Positions 7,419 through 63,957 are shown, counted from the stretch's first letter. The stretch is 64,000 bases of DNA from Candidatus Acidiferrales bacterium (GCA_035573755.1 DATLZY010000005.1:33190-97189); one strand, 5' to 3'. The notes: a model not told the origin generated them from the sequence alone. Numbers and translations are program-made.

Positions 7419-7478
7419 GCGCCTTTCGCTCGACTCGAGTTTACAGAAGTGCCCCAAAATCGCTATGATCGCGCGCTT

Positions 7479-7970
7479 ATGTCCGAGCCCTTGCCTGATT
7501 TGGTCGATGTTGACCGGCTCGCCCGGCGCGGCGCGCGGCTGGAGGGGCGGTTCGCGATTGTGCAGTTCGACCGGCTCCGCGACATGGTCGCCGAACCGGA
7601 CGGCGAGCTTTCTTTCGTGTTGCGGTTTTACCGGGACGGTGAAGGTCGCTCGCGCATTTCCGGCACGATTGAGGCGAGCGTGGTGCTGGTCTGTCAGCGT
7701 TGCCTGCAACCGATGGAGCAGGGCTTGGCTGCCGAGGTGGCGTTGGTGGCATTGGCCGAAGAACGGGACCTGTCGCAGGTGCCTGCGGAAGCCGAACCGC
7801 TGTTGACTGGGGGAGAACCGGTCCGATTGATCGATTTGATCGAAGACGAGGCCATTCTCGCGCTACCAATTGTCGCGCTCCACAATCACTGCACGGCGCC
7901 GGATCGGCCTGTTCCTGTTTCTTTTGGCGGCGAGGTCAGCCCTTTCGCGGTGCTGAAACGGGACAGATGA
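7479..7970 (+). CDS. yceD: YceD/DUF177 family 23S rRNA accumulation protein
   Basis: Cys pairs (VLVCQRCLQPM and HNHC), an acidic protein located directly upstream of rpmF. An alternative GTG start exists at 7449. Confidence 0.8.
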   Translation: MSEPLPDLVDVDRLARRGARLEGRFAIVQFDRLRDMVAEPDGELSFVLRFYRDGEGRSRISGTIEASVVLVCQRCLQPMEQGLAAEVALVALAEERDLSQVPAEAEPLLTGGEPVRLIDLIEDEAILALPIVALHNHCTAPDRPVPVSFGGEVSPFAVLKRDR

Positions 7971-8035
7971 AGTTAAACGGTGTGGGCCGCGTGGGTTCAC
8001 CGAATATCTAGAACATCCACAGGAGTTTTCAGATC

Positions 8036-8218
8036 ATGGCTGTGCAGCAAAACCGCAAAACCCGTTCCAAGCGCGGCATGCGCCGATCCCATGACGCGCT
8101 GACCAGCCCGTTCCTGTCGGCAGATCCCGTGACGGGGGAGACGCATCGTCGCCACCATCTGACGCCGACAGGGCACTACCGCGGTCGCAAGGTGCTGAGC
8201 GGTCCCGCCGAGGAATGA
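8036..8218 (+). CDS. rpmF: 50S ribosomal protein L32
   Basis: [22 protein letters not shown], 60 aa. AGGAG RBS upstream. Confidence 0.95.
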
Positions 8219-8334
8219 TCCGGTCGCCGCGCGCCGCCCTGTCGGTGCCACGACACTCAAACAGCGCAAGCCTGACATGACCCGCCCTGCGGTGAGTCTT
8301 GCAATGCGTCCATGGTCGGGTTGGCGGAGCCAGG

Positions 8335-9375
8335 ATGACTAACACGGTATACATGGCGCTGGACGCCATGGGCGGCGATCACGGCCCCCGGGTCACGGTC
8401 CCGGCCGCCCTGTCGGCCTTGTCGGAATACGAAGACCTCCATCTGACGCTGGTGGGGCAGCCGGCAGCCCTGGAAGCGGAGTTGTCACGGCGGCGGGCCG
8501 GCTCGCCGCGCCGCCTCTCGATCCATCCCGCAATGCAGGTGGTGGAGATGAACGAAGCGCCGTCCAAGGCGCTGCGCAACAAGAAAGACTCCTCCATGCG
8601 GGTCGCCCTCGACCTGCTCAAGGCGGGGCATTGCTCGGTCATGGTCAGCGCGGGCAACACCGGCGCGCTCATGGCGACGGCCCGCTTCGTCCTGAAGACC
8701 CTGCCGGGGGTCGATCGCCCGGCCATCATCTCCGCGCTGCCGACCGTCCGTGGACACACCTATGTGCTCGATCTGGGCGCGAATGCCGACTGCACGGCGG
8801 AACAGCTCCACCAGTTCGCCGTCATGGGGTCGGTCATGGTGCAGGCGGTCGATCATGTCGACCGTCCCAAAGTCGGCCTGCTGAACATCGGCGTGGAGGA
8901 GATCAAGGGTGTGGAATCCGTCAAGCAGGCCGCACGCCTGCTGCAGGCGGATCCATCGATCAACTACTGCGGCTTCGTCGAAGGGAATGACATCTACGGG
9001 GGGAAGGTCGATGTCGTGGTCTGTGACGGCTTCGTGGGCAATGTCGCGCTCAAGACCAGCGAAGGGCTGGCGCACATGTTGAGCGAATATATCCGGCAGG
9101 AGTACGGCCGCAATCTGCTCACCAAACTGGCGGGTCTGATCTCGCTGCCGGTCCTCAAGGCCATCAAGGGTCGCATGGATCCACGCCTCTACAACGGCGC
9201 CAGCCTGCTCGGTTTGCAGGGCGTCGTCATCAAGAGCCATGGCGGCGCCGACGAATTGGCTTTTGCCAACGCGATCCGGCTGGGCATGAATGCGGCGCGC
9301 ATGTCGGTTCCCGACCGCATCGCCCATCTGGTCGGGTCGGCGCTGCAAGGACGCGTGCATGGGGAAGAACCGTGA
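8335..9375 (+). CDS. plsX: phosphate acyltransferase PlsX
   Basis: [11 protein letters not shown] motif in rpmF-plsX-fabH context. The ORF track begins at 8299. The ATG at 8335 gives the usual N-terminus. Confidence 0.9.
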
Positions 9376-10340
9376 AGCCCGTTTATTCGCGCATCATTGC
9401 TACGGGCAGTTACCTGCCGCGCCAGGTCGTTACCAATGCCGACTTGGAAGCCCGGCTGGACACCAGCGATGCCTGGATCCGCGAACGGACTGGTATATCG
9501 GAGCGCCACATCAGTGCCGCCGACGAAACGGTCAGCATGATGGCCGAGCAGGCGGCCCGGCGGGCGCTCGCTGCGGGTGGGCTTGCGCCCGAGGATCTCG
9601 ATCTCATCATCGTGGGCACGACGACACCGGATCAGATCTTCCCCAACTGCGCCACCATGCTGCAGGAGCGGCTCGGTATCGCCGGAATCGGCGCCTTCAG
9701 TCTCGAAGCCGCCTGCAGCGGTTTCATCTACGCCCTGAGCGTGGCCGACAAGTTCGTTCGTACTGGAGACGCCCGCCGGGTGCTGGTGGTGGGCGCAGAA
9801 ATGATGTCCCGTCTGGTGGACTGGAATGACCGAACCACCTGTGTGCTGTTCGGTGACGGCGCCGGTGCGGTGATTCTCGAGGCGACGAGCGAACCGGGTA
9901 TCATTGGGACCTTGCTTCATGCCGATGGTCGTTATCGTGAATTGCTGGAGTTTCCGGGTGGCGTGGGCCGGGATTTCCGCAATCTCGAGAACGTCCATCT
10001 CCAGATGCGCGGCAGTGAAGTGTTCAAGGTGGCGGTCGCGACGCTCGGACAGAGTGTCGAGGAATGCCTGAGCCGCTTCGGTCACGACAAGTCCGAGGTG
10101 GACTGGCTGATTCCACACCAGGCCAATGTCCGCATCATTCAGGCCACGGCCCGCCGGCTCGGCCTGTCGATGAATCAGGTCGTCGTGACCGTCGATCGTC
10201 ACGGCAATACATCCACGGCTTCCATTCCGCTGGCACTGGACGCGGCCGTACGCGACGGTCGCATCCAGCGGGGGCAGTTACTGTTGCTTGAGGCCTTTGG
10301 CGGCGGCTTCACCTGGGGTTCGGCGCTGATCCGCTTCTGA
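9372..10340 (+). CDS. fabH: 3-oxoacyl-ACP synthase III
   Basis: Active-site region [14 protein letters not shown], plus HQANVRI and [12 protein letters not shown]. The GTG start overlaps the plsX stop (GTGA). Confidence 0.93.
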
Positions 10341-10404
10341 CGGCGGAGCCGCAGGGGACGGCCCGTTGATCCATGTCATGGCGTAACTCCGGTCTGGTAG
10401 GGAT

Positions 10405-10430
10405 GATGATCACAGACCATCGTGATCATC
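10405..10430 (+). promoter_or_regulatory. perfect 9-bp inverted repeat (gatgatcac-N8-gtgatcatc) 24 nt upstream of the orphan pmoC start
   Basis: Read directly from the sequence. Lies between the fabH stop and the AGGAG RBS of the orphan pmoC. Candidate operator or 5'-UTR hairpin. Confidence 0.35.
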
Positions 10431-10453
10431 CGTCCACTCACAGGAGCCGCGCC

Positions 10454-11272
10454 ATGAACGCCGTGACCAAACCCCAGACACTACCCGTCGCGCCGCAGAC
10501 GCTCGTGCAGCGCCTGCTCGGCGCGCTGGGCCTGCTGCAGGACGAGTCCCGTCCGCCGCGCATGCCTTGGACGGCCGCGGTGGTGGGCGTTGCGGCAGCG
10601 GCCTTGGTCTTCGGCCTCTACCGCTGGTACCAGCAGGTCTTTTCCTTTTCCGTCGGGCTCGATTACTTCGAGCAGGATTTCCAGACCTATTGGATGAACC
10701 TGCTGTATGCCCAAGGCATCCTCATCACCTTGATTGGTCTGGTGGGCGTGCCTTTGCTGTGGTTCACGCGGCCCGCGCAGATCGTGATGTCGCCCCAGCG
10801 CGAGTTGTCGATCTATTACGCCATCCTCGCCTTCATGGCCGTGGGGAGCGTGATCCTCGTGGCGATTCTCGGCGTCTATGTGGAGGCCGATGCGGCCTGG
10901 CATCAAGTGACCATCCGCGACACCGACTTCACGCCAACCCACATCGGGCTGTTCTATTTCGCCATTCCCTTGGGGGCGGTCGGGGCCATCCTGGGCTTCA
11001 TCCTGATCCATACCCGCATGCCCTATTTCAGCAACCGGGTGTCGATTCCCCTGGCGCTGGTGGTCTGTGCGCCGGTCCTGATCATGCCCAATCTGGGGCT
11101 GAACGAGTGGGGCCATACTTTCTTTTACGCCGAGGAACTGTTTGCTGCGCCGATCCACTGGGGCTTCGTGGTGCTGGGCTGGGGGCTGTTCGGCATCGGC
11201 GGCTTCATGGTGCAGATCCTGCAGCGCATCCGCGAGTTGACGACGCTGGAACCGAAGCCGATCGAAGGCTGA
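10454..11272 (+). CDS. pmoC: orphan copper membrane monooxygenase subunit C paralogue (PmoC/AmoC family)
   Basis: Multi-TM protein carrying EADAAWHQVTIRDTDFTPTH and NEWGHTFFYAEELFAAPIH. These hold the D-x3-H...H and N-x3-H-x13-H ligand patterns of PmoC. AGGAG RBS before the ATG at 10454. No pmoA or pmoB is adjacent. Confidence 0.9.
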   Translation: MNAVTKPQTLPVAPQTLVQRLLGALGLLQDESRPPRMPWTAAVVGVAAAALVFGLYRWYQQVFSFSVGLDYFEQDFQTYWMNLLYAQGILITLIGLVGVPLLWFTRPAQIVMSPQRELSIYYAILAFMAVGSVILVAILGVYVEADAAWHQVTIRDTDFTPTHIGLFYFAIPLGAVGAILGFILIHTRMPYFSNRVSIPLALVVCAPVLIMPNLGLNEWGHTFFYAEELFAAPIHWGFVVLGWGLFGIGGFMVQILQRIRELTTLEPKPIEG

Positions 11273-11299
11273 CTTGGTCCGCGCGGAATTGACGCAAAG

Positions 11300-11328
11300 G
11301 GCGCCGCAGATTGCGGCGCCTTTTTTTG
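11300..11328 (+). terminator. intrinsic terminator after the orphan pmoC
   Basis: 9-bp stem ggcgccgca/tgcggcgcc with a 3-nt loop, followed by TTTTTTT. Confidence 0.85.
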
Positions 11329-11445
11329 TGCTCAAGCTCACCAGGAGCCGGCCGATACCCTGCATGAAGTCCTGCATCCGGTTGGGCTTCCGCCGCGCCC
11401 GAGCAAGACGAGCCGACGTGTCGAAACAAACAACAGGAAACCATC

Positions 11446-11796: not shown

Positions 11797-11828
11797 GACA
11801 GGGGCCGAGAGGCCCCTGTCCTGTTTTC
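11797..11828 (+). terminator. intrinsic terminator after the small secreted protein gene
   Basis: 10-bp stem gacaggggcc/ggcccctgtc with loop gaga, then ctgttttc. Confidence 0.8.
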
Positions 11829-23651: not shown

Positions 23652-23850
23652 AACGAGGACGCCTCCCGCCTGTGCCGTGGCAGCCCGTGACCTTGAACCA
23701 TAAGGTTCAAGTGGGCGGAACGATGAGGCCTGAAGGCTTTCCGCCGTGAAGCGGACCTGCACAAGGGCATCAAGGCGTTCGGCCCTGGGTTTGCGTTTAG
23801 GCTCAAGGGTACCCTGGGTAGCCCTCGAACACCGCAGGAGACGTCGCGGC
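23652..23850 (-). ncRNA. ssrS: 6S RNA
   Basis: The minus-strand transcript carries several blocks recalled from E. coli 6S RNA. These are GUUCG, CCCUUGAGCC, GAAAGCCUU, and the CACUUGAACCUUAUGGUUCAAGGUCAC hairpin (E. coli ACCUUGAACCAAGGGUUCAAGGGUUAC). The 5' GACGUCUCC pairs with the 3' GGAGGCGUC as a closing stem. Sits between zapA and the 5-FCL gene as in E. coli. Ends are approximate. Confidence 0.85.
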
Positions 23851-44404: not shown

Positions 44405-44490
44405 GGATGTCGGAGAGCGCCGTTGAATCGCTTCCGAGCCTGGGATCGGACCTGCGGGCCGATCTTGCAGCGCTCCTCGGAATGCCCGGC
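44405..44490 (-). promoter_or_regulatory. SAH riboswitch in the ahcY-metF leader
   Basis: Minus strand reads UUCCGAGGAGCGCUGCAAGAUCGGCCCGCAGGUCCGAUCCCAGGCUCGGAAGCGAUUCAACGGCGCUCUCCG. It contains the conserved CGAGGAGCGCUGC...CAGGCUCGG...AACGGCGCUC blocks. P1 is CCGAG/CUCGG, P2 is the GAUCGG/CCGAUC hairpin, and AGCGC/GCGCU forms the pseudoknot. Lies about 80 nt upstream of the ahcY ATG. Confidence 0.85.
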
Positions 44491-59874: not shown

Positions 59875-60680
59875 TGACCTGCCCCCTTCAGCCGTACCAG
59901 TGATTCGGTTGGGGGGCTGGGGTTGAAGGTTAATGGAATTGGCTGGGTACGGTGTGACGAGCGGCATCGCCGTTGTGTCGGCGTAGCTGCTCTGCGTATT
60001 GGGCCGGCGGTATCCGGCCTATGCTGCTGTGGGGCCGGACCTCGTTGTAGTCGCTGCGCCAGGCGGCGATCTCTGTCCGGGCCTGTCTGAGGTTCTGGAA
60101 CCAGTGCTCATTGCGGCACTCGTCGCGGAACTTGCCGTTGAAGCTCTCGATGTAGCCGTTCTGCATGGGCCGGCCTGGCTCGATGAGGATGTGGCGGATG
60201 TGGTGCTCCTGCGTCCAGGCGATGAAAGCACGGCCGGTGAACTCCGGGCCGTTGTCGGTTCTGACAGCGGCCGGGTAGTCCCTGAATCGCGCTGCCTGGT
60301 CCAGCAGCCGGGTCACGTACAGGCCGCTGATGCCGCAGTCCACAGCAATGTCCACGCACTCATGGCTGAGGTCATCGGCCACGGTCGGGCACTTGATGCG
60401 CCGTCCGTTGGCCAGGCTGTCGCTGACGAAGTCCATGCTCCACACCTCGTTGATGCGTTGGGCGATGTTCAAGGGCGTGCGCTCCATCACCGGGCGCTTG
60501 GCCTGCTTGCGCTTGCGCACCGCCAGATGGGCCGCGCTGTAGAGCCGGTACACCCGCTTGTGATTGACACCGGGAAAGTCGTTGCGCAGCAGGTCGTGCA
60601 CGCGCCGGTAGCCGAAGCGCCAGCGCACATGGGCGATCCCTCCTGGGAGGAGCGTGAGCGAAAGATCTGATGATCCATGC
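59875..60680 (-). mobile_element. 5'-truncated IS3-family insertion sequence (right end plus most of orfB; orfA and left end missing)
   Basis: The plus-strand end TGACCTGCCCCC at 59875 corresponds to ...GGGGGCAGGTCA on the IS strand, the TG...CA termini typical of IS3-family IRs. It lies 55 nt beyond the orfB stop. The inner boundary is approximate. Confidence 0.8.
59930..60628 (-). pseudogene. IS3-family transposase OrfB (integrase core), N-terminally truncated
   Basis: RFGYRRVHDLLR...VNHKRVYRLY...WSMDFVSD...TDNGPEFTGRAF...SFNGKFRDECRNEHWF...RPHSSIG carries the DDE/rve-domain blocks. The frame hits a TAG about 15 codons upstream of the GTG, and no orfA is present. Confidence 0.85.
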
Positions 60681-60888: not shown

Positions 60889-61686
60889 ATGAGTACCGTA
60901 ATGGATCGCAATATCGCGGGCGAGCCCGCAACAGGGACGGAGGCGCCGCGCCCGCCATGGGGCTTAGCGGTTACCGTGACGGCGATCGCGATCGCATTCG
61001 TCGCCCTCGTGAAATGGTATCAACACAGTTTTTCCTGGTCAGTGGGGCTCGATTCATTTTCCGAGGAGTTTCAGATCTACTGGATGCGGATCTTCTATGC
61101 CCAGATCATTCTTCTGCCGGTCCTGGGTTGCATAGGGGCCGTCTGGCTCTGGCTGACTCGCGATCGAGACATCATGAACCTGCCGGCCCGGGATGAACTG
61201 GGGCGGTTTTATGCCATGTTCAGCATTCTCGTCGTAGCGGCGATCGCTCTGATTGCAGCCCTGGGACTGTTGACGGAAGCCGATGCGGCCTGGCATCAAG
61301 TGGTGATTCGGGACACCGACTTCACCCCAACCCACATTTTCCTATTCTATCTGGGGGTGCCTGCCGGTCTCGGCGGCTTGGCGATGGCTTGGATCTGGGT
61401 GCACACGCGACTGCCTTATTTTGCCAATCGTGTGTCCATGCCGCTGTCGCTGGCCATCATCGGCTTCATGTGCGCGGGTCCGGTGGTTGCCTTCAACGAA
61501 TGGGCACATACCTTCTTCTACGCCGAGGAACTGTTCGGTGCGCCGGTGCATTGGTTCTTCGTGCTCGCAGGATTTTTCCTCGTCTTTCTGATCGGTTTCG
61601 TGATTCAGTGCTTGCAACGCATGCATGAACTGAGCCGGGTATACAGCCTGGAGGAGGTGGAGAAGGAGATGGGTTTGGGCCGCTGA
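60889..61686 (+). CDS. pmoC: copper membrane monooxygenase subunit C (PmoC/AmoC family), operonic copy
   Basis: 265 aa, 6 TM. EADAAWHQVVIRDTDFTPTH and NEWAHTFFYAEELFGAPVH ligand blocks. AAGAGGAG RBS. Confidence 0.92.
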   Translation: MSTVMDRNIAGEPATGTEAPRPPWGLAVTVTAIAIAFVALVKWYQHSFSWSVGLDSFSEEFQIYWMRIFYAQIILLPVLGCIGAVWLWLTRDRDIMNLPARDELGRFYAMFSILVVAAIALIAALGLLTEADAAWHQVVIRDTDFTPTHIFLFYLGVPAGLGGLAMAWIWVHTRLPYFANRVSMPLSLAIIGFMCAGPVVAFNEWAHTFFYAEELFGAPVHWFFVLAGFFLVFLIGFVIQCLQRMHELSRVYSLEEVEKEMGLGR

Positions 61687-61695
61687 CGGACAACA

Positions 61696-61733
61696 CCGGA
61701 GCGAATGGTCGAGGGAGCGCCCATTCGCTCCGG
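61696..61733 (+). promoter_or_regulatory. perfect 13-bp intercistronic hairpin between pmoC and pmoA
   Basis: ccggagcgaatgg-N12-ccattcgctccgg with no following T tract. Starts 10 nt after the pmoC stop. Confidence 0.5.
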
Positions 61734-61831
61734 ATCGTCACGATATCGCATCTCCTATTGCGAGGTAGGCTGCTTTTGTCAGCACCAGCCCAAGCTCAAA
61801 CCGAAACCAATGGAAGGATGGAAGGGTTTTC

Positions 61832-62620
61832 ATGGCTATTCAAATCGACACCAGCAATCGTACCGACGCCGATCGAGCGCCGCGGGGAAAAGCGGTCATC
61901 AGCGTCAAGGATCAGATGCAGGCGTGGCGTAACGCCGATCTGTTTTTCTTTCCGCTTATCTCCATCTTGATCGGAGGCGCTGCAGTCTTTCTGTGCGCGC
62001 TGACCGTCGGGGATTGGAGTTACTGGATGGATTGGCGGGATCGGCGCTGGTGGCCTCTGTTGACGCCTCTGCTGTTGCTCGCCTTACCTGCCGTAGCCAC
62101 CTATGCGTTCTGGAAGTATTTCAAGTTGCCGGTTGCGGCAACAGGCTTGGCATTGGGATTCTGGCTTTCCCAGATCGTCAGCCGATATGTGAATTTTCAT
62201 GTATTCGCGGCATTTCCGATGAATTGGGTCATGCCGGAAGTCTGGATCGGTGCGGCCGTCGTTCTGGATGCCGTGCTGCTGATCACCCGCAGCTTCGCCC
62301 TGACCGGATTGGTTGGCGGCATGCTGTGGGGTCTTTTATTTTCGGCCATGAACTGGCCCGTGGTAGCACCCATGCACATGGCGGTTCAATTGGGTGACAA
62401 CGTGATGACTCTGGCCGACTACATGGGCTTCCAGTACATCCGCACGGCCATGCCCGAATATGTGCGCATCATCGAAGCGGGCACATTGCGTACGTTCGGG
62501 ACTCATGTCGCTCCGGTCAGTGCCTTCGTTTCGGGATTCTTTGCCATCTTGGTCTACTACGTCTTCGTATGGATCGGCTCCAAGGGTTCCCGGCCGTCCT
62601 GGCTGGTGAAGCTGGTATGA
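61832..62620 (+). CDS. pmoA: copper membrane monooxygenase subunit A (PmoA/AmoA family), divergent
   Basis: 262 aa. GDWSYWMDWRDRRWWPLLTP, NWPVVAPMHM, YIRTAMPEYVRIIEAGTLRTFG and VAPVSAF blocks parallel canonical PmoA/AmoA. The remainder is divergent. Confidence 0.9.
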   Translation: MAIQIDTSNRTDADRAPRGKAVISVKDQMQAWRNADLFFFPLISILIGGAAVFLCALTVGDWSYWMDWRDRRWWPLLTPLLLLALPAVATYAFWKYFKLPVAATGLALGFWLSQIVSRYVNFHVFAAFPMNWVMPEVWIGAAVVLDAVLLITRSFALTGLVGGMLWGLLFSAMNWPVVAPMHMAVQLGDNVMTLADYMGFQYIRTAMPEYVRIIEAGTLRTFGTHVAPVSAFVSGFFAILVYYVFVWIGSKGSRPSWLVKLV

Positions 62621-62640
62621 GAAAGACAGGAGTGACCGCG

Positions 62641-63957
62641 ATGGAAAGGCTGGATCGACGCGGATTGCGTAACGCTCTTCTCATGGTCCTGATGTGGGCT
62701 CTGTTGGTGCCGGTGACCTATGGGCATGGCGAAATTGCCCAGATGGCGGGCATTCGCATGCGAACCATTCACTGGTTCGATACCGAGATACAACCGACTC
62801 AGGTCAAGGTCAACGATATCGTCACGGTACGGGGCAAATTCATGGTTTCCGGACATTGGCCAGATTACGTGGCGAAGCCGGAGGAGTGGGTTTTTCTGAA
62901 CATCGGTGTTCCGGGACCCGTCTTCGTCCGCTTGGACACCACCATAAACGGCATGCCGCAGTATCAATCAACTGCGTTCAAACGGGGTGAATTCTACGAG
63001 TACGAAATCAAGCTCAAGGCTCGGGTGCCCGGTGAATGGCATGTGCACCCGCTGATCAACGTTTGGGAGGCGGGCCCTATTGCAGGGCCAGCGCGCTTTG
63101 TCCAGATCAGCGGAGACAAGGCAGATTTCGTTAATACGGTCACACTGATGGATGGCGAATTGGTGGACGTGGAGAACTATGGCCTGTCGTCCATGTGGTC
63201 GATCCACTTGCTGTGGGTGCTCGTAGGCCTGCTCTGGATCGGTTATTGGTTCCGGCGACTGCCGGTCATGATGTACCGCTATGTGATGGTCAAGGAACAT
63301 GGAGAACTCGAGGCTGAACGGCGACTCATCAGCATCCAGGACATTGCCGTCAGCGTAACTTTTGTAGTAGCGATTATCGGTGTGACCTTGGGGTTGATGG
63401 TGTGGTCCTTCGATCGCTGGTCGATCACAATCCCCTTACAAACCGGAAAAGTCGAAGCGCCGGTGATCCCGTTGCCTGAATCCCAACAACAGGTGGATGT
63501 CAAGGTCAACAGGGCCCAATTCGATCTGCCGTCGCGACGCCTGGACATGGCGCTCGAGGTGACCAACCGGTCGACCGAGCCGGTTCGCGTCGGAAAGTTC
63601 GTCACTGGTTATGCCCGTTTCATCAATCCGGCGGTACTGGAGGATATGAAGCATGACCGTTACGATCCAGTGGCTCCGACAGGGTTGAGCAGCGACGTCG
63701 AGTGGATCGAGGCGGGCCAGAGCCGCTTGATCAATGTGACATTGGCTGACGCTCTATGGGGCGAACAGCGGCTGACCGACATCGTAGCAGAGCCTGATCT
63801 GCGTTTCGCCGGATTGATGTTCTTCTACTCAGCCGATGGGCAACGTCATGTTCGTGAGATTGGCGCTCGTATGACACCCAATTTTTTGCCGGGTTATGTT
63901 CCGGTCAACCGGCACGGCGGGCATGTGACATTGGAAAATCGTGGGTCAATGGGCTGA
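62641..63957 (+). CDS. pmoB: copper membrane monooxygenase subunit B (PmoB/AmoB family)
   Basis: Signal peptide ends ...VPVTYG, followed by HGE, the N-terminal His of the CuB site. MRTIHWFD and the GEWHVHPLINV HxH motif are present. Two C-terminal-half TM helices. AGGAG RBS for the ATG at 62641. An alternative ATG at 62617 overlaps the pmoA stop. Confidence 0.9.
   Translation: MERLDRRGLRNALLMVLMWALLVPVTYGHGEIAQMAGIRMRTIHWFDTEIQPTQVKVNDIVTVRGKFMVSGHWPDYVAKPEEWVFLNIGVPGPVFVRLDTTINGMPQYQSTAFKRGEFYEYEIKLKARVPGEWHVHPLINVWEAGPIAGPARFVQISGDKADFVNTVTLMDGELVDVENYGLSSMWSIHLLWVLVGLLWIGYWFRRLPVMMYRYVMVKEHGELEAERRLISIQDIAVSVTFVVAIIGVTLGLMVWSFDRWSITIPLQTGKVEAPVIPLPESQQQVDVKVNRAQFDLPSRRLDMALEVTNRSTEPVRVGKFVTGYARFINPAVLEDMKHDRYDPVAPTGLSSDVEWIEAGQSRLINVTLADALWGEQRLTDIVAEPDLRFAGLMFFYSADGQRHVREIGARMTPNFLPGYVPVNRHGGHVTLENRGSMG

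Follow-up and report, generated by a model that had tools for sequence, protein, structure and literature searches.

The active site of the copper membrane monooxygenases (CuMMO), which oxidise methane, ammonia or hydrocarbons, is probably located in the C subunit, at the copper sites CuC and CuD (PMC13058606). As this subunit is presumed to be the catalytic one, the retention of extra C genes by bacteria poses a real and already recognised question. Singleton xmoC genes have long been known, for instance in Methylococcus capsulatus (its third pmoC) and in Methylacidiphilum (an orphan pmoC) (PMC6215863), and phages carry pmoC alone, presumably as a supplement to the host complex (PMC7674155). 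In Nitrosomonas europaea, amoC3 is an isolated and divergent C gene, present beside the CAB operon(s) and 67.5% identical to the operonic copies, which retains the ligands and presumably joins the same complex; it is separately transcribed and regulated, and is induced on starvation recovery, heat shock and oxidative damage (Berube and Stahl 2012, cited in PMC13058606). For Macondimonas/UBA5335, another report describes a phmCAB operon with extra phmC copies, for which a broader substrate range was suggested (10.1101/2023.07.16.546273). Stand-alone C copies are, then, already known, and published for the lineage to which our locus appears to belong (PMC6215863; 10.1101/2023.07.16.546273).

The window analysed here is a 64-kb stretch of DNA whose host would be a Macondimonas-like (UBA5335) gammaproteobacterium. 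It holds an intact, selected, singleton CuMMO C (gamma) subunit gene, hereafter the orphan, and a pmoCAB-type operon 50.4 kb downstream of it (Table 1). This is the arrangement described for Ca. Macondimonas phmC in that report, whose main text mentions the extra copies but gives no genomic contexts, counts, selection or fabH-linked copy. We hypothesize, with a probability of about 0.55, that the orphan encodes a separately regulated alternative or replacement gamma subunit assembling with the resident PmoA and PmoB. It is a member of a family of singletons, and its position after fabH is incidental.

Table 1. Features of the 64-kb window that are discussed in the text, with the basis of each assignment.
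Feature	Position	Strand	Basis
yceD	7449-7970	+	Pfam match (YceD)
rpmF (L32)	8036-8218	+	Pfam match
plsX	8299-9375	+	Pfam match (PlsX)
fabH	9372-10340	+	Pfam match (FabH)
yceD-rpmF-plsX-fabH block, ending at fabH	7449-10340	+	PF02620, PF01783, PF02504, PF08545/PF08541
Conserved leader, predicted to be structured, fabH to orphan C	10341-10453	+	RNA fold, orthologue alignment; 113 nt
Ribosome-binding site AGGAG	10442-10446	+	7 nt before ATG, read from sequence
Orphan C gene (CuMMO gamma subunit), 272 aa	10454-11272	+	PF04896, fold, ligands, dN/dS
Intrinsic terminator 3' of orphan C	11296-11330	+	13-bp stem (11296-11324) with 8 G-C pairs, then T-run
Small secreted protein, 108 aa	11446-11772	+	Sec-type signal ending AQA
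Truncated transposase of the IS3 family, immediately 5' of the CAB operon	59930-60628	-	NF033516, profile positions 149-368 of 369
pmoCAB-type CuMMO operon	60889-63957	+	NCBIfam AmoC/AmoA/AmoB matches
pmoC (operonic)	60889-61686	+	NCBIfam; under equivalog cut-off
pmoA	61832-62620	+	NCBIfam; under equivalog cut-off
pmoB	about 62641-63957	+	NCBIfam match

The orphan protein matches the Pfam AmoC family (PF04896) with 210.6 bits (cut-off 26.7; E 3e-62; positions 19-243 of the 245 in the profile) and the solved PmoC chains in a phmmer search (E 6e-51, 3rfr_C). Its AlphaFold2 model (mean pLDDT 79.3) contains six long helices, and the top 20 Foldseek matches in the PDB are all PmoC/AmoC chains, with probability 1.00 and TM-scores of 0.67-0.79 when normalised by target length. 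The predicted structure is thus the all-helical, multi-pass membrane fold of PmoC/AmoC. The first-pass annotation had noticed that both copper-ligand blocks are kept, and this is indeed the case. CuC ligands D146, H150 and H163 (numbering of the 272-aa protein) align with EQDGAWH...TPSH of solved PmoC, and CuD ligands N217, H221 and H235 lie within NEWGHTFFYAEELFAAPIHW. None of the six varies among 40 clade members. The CuC/CuD region is nearly identical across all paralogues and the operonic copy (HTFFYAEELFAAPIH vs HTFFYAEELFGAPVH), the ligand blocks and the inter-His loop being close to invariant among C paralogues.

The longest ORF at the locus spans 10373-11272 and would encode 299 aa. 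We place the start at 10454 instead of 10373 because all homologues are about 272 aa long and begin with MN(A/T/S)(V/I)T. All orthologues have an uninterrupted reading frame, and dN/dS against them is 0.04-0.10 at dS values of 0.4-1.1, compared with 0.04 for neighbouring fabH. These dN/dS values reject a pseudogene. L017 contains a 51-aa C remnant and L034 a split copy (L numbers designate the loci compared), which could suggest that the orphan is likewise a decaying duplicate. An IS3 fragment in the window could suggest that it is recent mobile or phage cargo, in either case without a role, yet this fragment lies beside the operon and away from the orphan. Intact frames and purifying selection argue against decay. 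Besides, the orphan has native composition (GC3 0.85, as in neighbouring native genes), mobile-element genes are not found nearby, and only two viral contigs contain relatives, at 47-50% identity. We thus reject a phage or mobile origin, and a gene without a role seems to us wholly implausible. As in phages, C is encoded alone, but the orphan, unlike phage pmoC, lies in a native housekeeping region and has native composition.

PmoA and PmoB are encoded in the window only at 61832-63954, according to tblastn, and pmoA/pmoB are absent within 10 kb of the orphan in the window, L013, L014 and L172. With no xmoA or xmoB adjacent to it and a complete xmoCAB elsewhere in the window, the orphan is a singleton xmoC, of the same family and architecture as the methanotroph singleton pmoC/xmoC genes (PMC6215863). 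BLASTP aligns it with the operonic C at 118/233 identical residues (51%, E 3e-77), in accord with the two blocks aligned by hand in the first reading (27/49 and 40/61 identical). The overall identity of 47-51% bears out the view expressed there that the orphan is an old paralogue and no recent duplicate. The orphan scores below the NCBIfam equivalog cut-offs NF041641 (223 vs 319 bits) and TIGR03078 (205 vs 281 bits). Because both C copies and PmoA are under such cut-offs, the enzyme is consistent with a hydrocarbon-type CuMMO rather than a methane or ammonia monooxygenase proper, and differs in this from that of amoC3.

The operonic C is 43-48% identical to each of the singleton paralogues and forms its own clade, outside theirs. 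The operon is conserved in L187-L189, where C is 88% identical and PmoB has 438 aa. Its GC content is 0.56-0.58 and its GC3 0.67-0.71, while the GC of the window is 0.64 and the GC3 of the other measured genes ranges from 0.68 to 0.85, so the pmoCAB operon looks more foreign than the orphan. The window adds a clean case to those already described, namely an intact, strongly selected and compositionally native singleton facing a compositionally foreign operon. The IS3 fragment upstream of the operon is missing from the orthologous operon in L187-L189; in these 88% relatives pmoCAB directly follows metK and an acyl-CoA synthetase gene, without IS.

The proteins closest to the orphan come from Macondimonas-like (UBA5335) assemblies, namely Gammapro13 (97% identity), AMX-MBFR-76 (96%), Macondimonas sp. 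AMR_MDS_0048 (95%) and Ca. M. diazotrophica (two copies, 78% and 65%). The closest named relatives are Macondimonas assemblies, at 77-95% identity. In a neighbour-joining tree of 104 C genes from 91 loci (265 columns, no bootstrap), the orphan falls in a Macondimonas clade made almost wholly of singletons. In its sister group, one C gene precedes pmoA/pmoB in L004 but is a singleton in L001-L003, which indicates how singletons can arise. They would probably originate either by duplication of a C gene or by loss of pmoA and pmoB from an operon. In L004 (1739-5063) C precedes pmoA/pmoB and a multicopper oxidase gene, with PmoB called as two ORFs; in L001 (6095-6913) this Macondimonas gene is found singly, next to an acyl-CoA synthetase gene; and L017 contains, at 8775-8927, the remnant of a neighbouring C gene. 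Read from their gene order, these three loci are presumably snapshots of operon decay and C-gene turnover. In L034 (10001-15393), the order is C, frameshifted C, and then A and B.

Stand-alone C genes are the majority class in this hydrocarbon-degrading lineage. In 28 related gammaproteobacterial assemblies, Macondimonas-like and other marine hydrocarbon degraders, we counted at least 57 stand-alone and at least 18 operon-linked C genes, a ratio of about 3:1, plus at least 11 at contig edges; these are lower bounds from the 80 of 207 matches that were retained, a sample weighted in favour of relatives of the orphan. At least five singletons each are present in AMX-MBFR-76 and AMR_MDS_0048, and C genes of all kinds number at least nine in NORP74 and at least eight in UBA5859. 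The orphan is one of such a family of dispersed singleton C genes, which within a genome are 48-77% identical to one another. Methanotrophs have few singleton pmoC/xmoC genes per genome, usually near the operonic copy. The singletons described here differ from these in being the majority class, in their deep divergence and in forming tandem arrays in some relatives. N. europaea has one singleton, against at least five in the lineage of the orphan (PMC13058606).

This abundance raises the question of whether C could work without PmoA and PmoB, either as a self-sufficient copper enzyme or as a membrane factor for copper binding, sensing or assembly. The excess of singletons over operon-linked genes would fit this idea, and so would the tandem triplets of C genes without pmoA/pmoB nearby in L038 (10001-12907) and L043 (7357-10789), the small secreted protein that accompanies this C clade in a lineage-specific manner, the location of both proposed catalytic copper sites wholly inside C (PMC13058606) and the phages that encode C alone (PMC7674155). 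The tandem loci belong to related Pseudomonadales and Thiotrichaceae assemblies. However, C appears in solved structures only within the alpha-beta-gamma trimer, and a CAB operon does exist in the window and in its 88-89% relatives. We consider activity of C on its own improbable, and we know of no C subunit that is active without A and B.

As both copper sites are kept under purifying selection, exchange into the CuMMO complex is the most reasonable function for the orphan, and from this ligand conservation and selection we infer its assembly with PmoA/PmoB. The protein would insert into the membrane and fill the gamma position of an (alpha-beta-gamma)3 complex with PmoA and PmoB of the operon at 60.9 kb, where it would provide the CuC/CuD site, the presumed place of catalysis. 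There are real doubts about such an assembly, given the low identity to the operonic C (47-51%, compared with 67.5% for amoC3) and the fact that the PmoA of the nearest operon-linked relative (L004) is 39% identical to that of the window, for which reason the fit of the orphan to the interface of the resident A and B is not guaranteed. In favour of these partners, A/B genes were seen nowhere in the window and its 88-89% relatives but in the divergent CAB operon, and AMX-MBFR-76 and AMR_MDS_0048 showed no CAB operon whose C exceeds 52% identity. The genome may contain a further CAB operon beyond the 64-kb window.

A nearly identical metal-site region fits an exchangeable part better than a variant of altered substrate range. 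The proposal of a broader range in the phmC report (10.1101/2023.07.16.546273) finds no obvious support here, as the active-site residues of the paralogues are near-identical. A substrate range set by active-site differences was thus discarded, the ligand blocks and the inter-His loop being nearly invariant. It could be speculated, although we regard it as doubtful, that the singletons constitute a pool of interchangeable catalytic subunits on one PmoA/PmoB scaffold, giving combinatorial CuMMO isoenzymes each under its own control, with the fabH-linked copy gated at translation by its leader and provided with a secreted partner. If this were true, the singletons found here, at least five per genome, and the tandem C-C-C arrays of related Pseudomonadales would be an isoenzyme set. 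As singletons outnumber operon-linked C genes by about 3:1, these organisms are well suited to tests of subunit exchange.

Returning to a separately regulated replacement subunit, the orphan has its own expression signals. The first-pass annotation described a monocistronic gene with its own ribosome-binding site and a strong intrinsic terminator. Both signals are present as described (Table 1): the ribosome-binding site is invariant in orthologues, and the terminator is maintained in L012 and L010 despite altered stem sequences. The term monocistronic holds at the 3' end, where the terminator lies, but not at the 5' end. Promoter and terminator scans found neither a sigma-70-like promoter nor a terminator in the interval between fabH and the orphan, so read-through transcription from fabH is possible. 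Regulation separate from that of the operon is suggested by the leader and the terminator, which would allow expression under conditions unlike those of the operon and make the orphan a condition-specific or replacement isoform. For amoC3, separate transcription is documented (PMC13058606); for the orphan, separate expression is deduced from these signals.

The leader contains a perfect 9-bp inverted repeat, GATGATCAC-N8-GTGATCATC, at 10405-10430. Its predicted fold has an energy of -56.4 kcal/mol (z = -3.44), and 0 of 200 shuffles were equally stable. In an outer stem of this fold, the region of the Shine-Dalgarno sequence and start codon is base-paired to a conserved TCATGGCG block. The Shine-Dalgarno sequence and AUG are also paired in the consensus fold of seven orthologues, with weak covariation. 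A comparison with Rfam, at the gathering cut-offs and at E<=1, gave no match for the leader. The inverted repeat is present a single time in the window and is absent upstream of other C genes, which rules out a regulator site common to all singleton C genes. We think that the leader, with its inverted repeat, might act as an operator or as a switch of translation.

These features bear on a subunit of the AmoC3 type, made after starvation, heat or oxidative damage, which would replace damaged C and restart the enzyme without creating a new isoenzyme. The induction pattern of the isolated amoC3 gene, for which stress induction was shown (PMC13058606), is the precedent for such a role. An active-site region nearly the same as in the operonic copy would suit a spare part, and a stable leader fold can mask the Shine-Dalgarno sequence and AUG in the manner of RNA thermosensors. 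Nevertheless, by-eye inspection of the intergenic alignment of orthologues revealed no conserved sigma-E-like motif, the covariation in the leader is weak, and the leader is not common to the other singletons. Moreover, at least five distinct singletons per genome, 48-77% identical to each other, are a diversity beyond the need for a spare part. A stress or repair role is therefore a tentative possibility for the orphan.

The location of the orphan had attracted attention in the first reading, where it was proposed to replace fabD-fabG-acpP-fabF in a lipid-synthesis neighbourhood considered unusual. A Pfam scan confirms the order yceD-rpmF-plsX-fabH with an AmoC/PmoC-family gene directly after fabH. 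Among the ORFs scanned across the window, further fatty-acid-synthesis families had no match, fabD, fabG, acpP and fabF being absent from it, and no acpP homologue was found within the 64 kb with E. coli AcpP as query. Among 44 unrelated fabH loci with enough sequence, acpP lies within 5 kb downstream in 33 and is absent in 11. The idea of a replacement does not stand, as relatives carry clpS-clpA after fabH. The genes after plsX-fabH are clpS-clpA-infA-aat both in Ca. Macondimonas diazotrophica, whose FabH is 89% identical, and in the more distant relative GCA_034189865 (71% for FabH), with neither fabD nor amoC there. Therefore, the fab cluster ended at fabH before the C block came, and nothing was replaced. 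The upstream leuD-leuB-asd-fimV-truA-yceD-rpmF block is common to the window and M. diazotrophica. Loci L182-L185 are the fabH loci of Ca. M. diazotrophica and GCA_034189865, and the fab cluster is split throughout the lineage.

The fabH-amoC order is limited to orthologues with 95% identity or more (L008, L012-L014, L092, L172-L179; in L177-L179 the contigs break off within the gene that follows fabH). In the 89% orthologue (L010/L011), the block of C, small ORF and mgtC is retained but preceded by moeA, and the 73-78% relatives of the orphan occupy other gene contexts. Other singletons of the species group are found beside purT/rluB and a transglutaminase gene, beside a reductase/DUF4442 pair and a PAS-GGDEF-EAL protein gene, beside acyl-CoA dehydrogenase genes and uvrD, and beside rlmI and lnt. 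A rearrangement in one species-level lineage would have put the C, small-protein and mgtC block beside a fab cluster already terminated at fabH. The earlier concern that fabH-pmoC adjacency might be universal in a clade free of CuMMO operons does not apply either, since the window and its 88-89% relatives carry the CAB operon.

One could still imagine that the orphan is co-transcribed with plsX-fabH and acts on membrane or fatty-acid metabolism: the gap after fabH is short (113 nt), on the same strand and devoid of terminator or predicted promoter, and the arrangement is maintained in all orthologues at least 95% identical. The moeA context of the 89% orthologue, the different contexts of the 73-78% relatives, the clpS-clpA genes after plsX-fabH in relatives and the unrelated genes adjoining singletons of the same genome contradict such a tie, which for lack of conservation is largely refuted and, in our estimation, very unlikely. 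We accordingly reject a functional link to fatty-acid synthesis, the adjacency being confined to orthologues of at least 95% identity. In these comparisons, the link to fabH is shallow and recent, and the position of the orphan is neither functionally meaningful nor, for this lineage, unusual.

The small secreted protein encoded downstream of the orphan has its gene next to C in L010, L011 and L013-L018, the 78% paralogue clade among them, with 49-84% identity, and evolves under purifying selection (dN/dS 0.10-0.25). It belongs to no Pfam or NCBIfam family, and only four homologues were found among 1.84 billion representative proteins. A PmoD/AmoD-like partner was considered and rejected, as neither database gives a match and the mature part, inspected by eye, contains no Cys or His. 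It may act together with these C subunits as a lineage-specific partner. A terminator-like site follows its gene at 11797-11820.

Some minor observations concern the rest of the window. Before the CuD site, the operonic C has GPVVAFNEWAH, while the consensus is MPNLGLNEWGH in singleton C genes and in solved pMMO/AMO subunits; by this motif, the operonic C is the atypical copy. The other genes of the window are ordinary housekeeping ones: leuCD, leuB, asd, fimV, truA, ggt, coaD, rsmD, ftsYEX, rpiA, pepP, ubiH-like genes, gcvP, metF, ahcY, metK, a thiolase gene and etfBA. Two structured RNAs are found in their usual contexts, a 6S RNA (87 bits, 23659-23843, minus strand) adjoining ygfA-like and zapA genes, and an SAH riboswitch (64 bits, 44408-44484, minus strand) upstream of ahcY.
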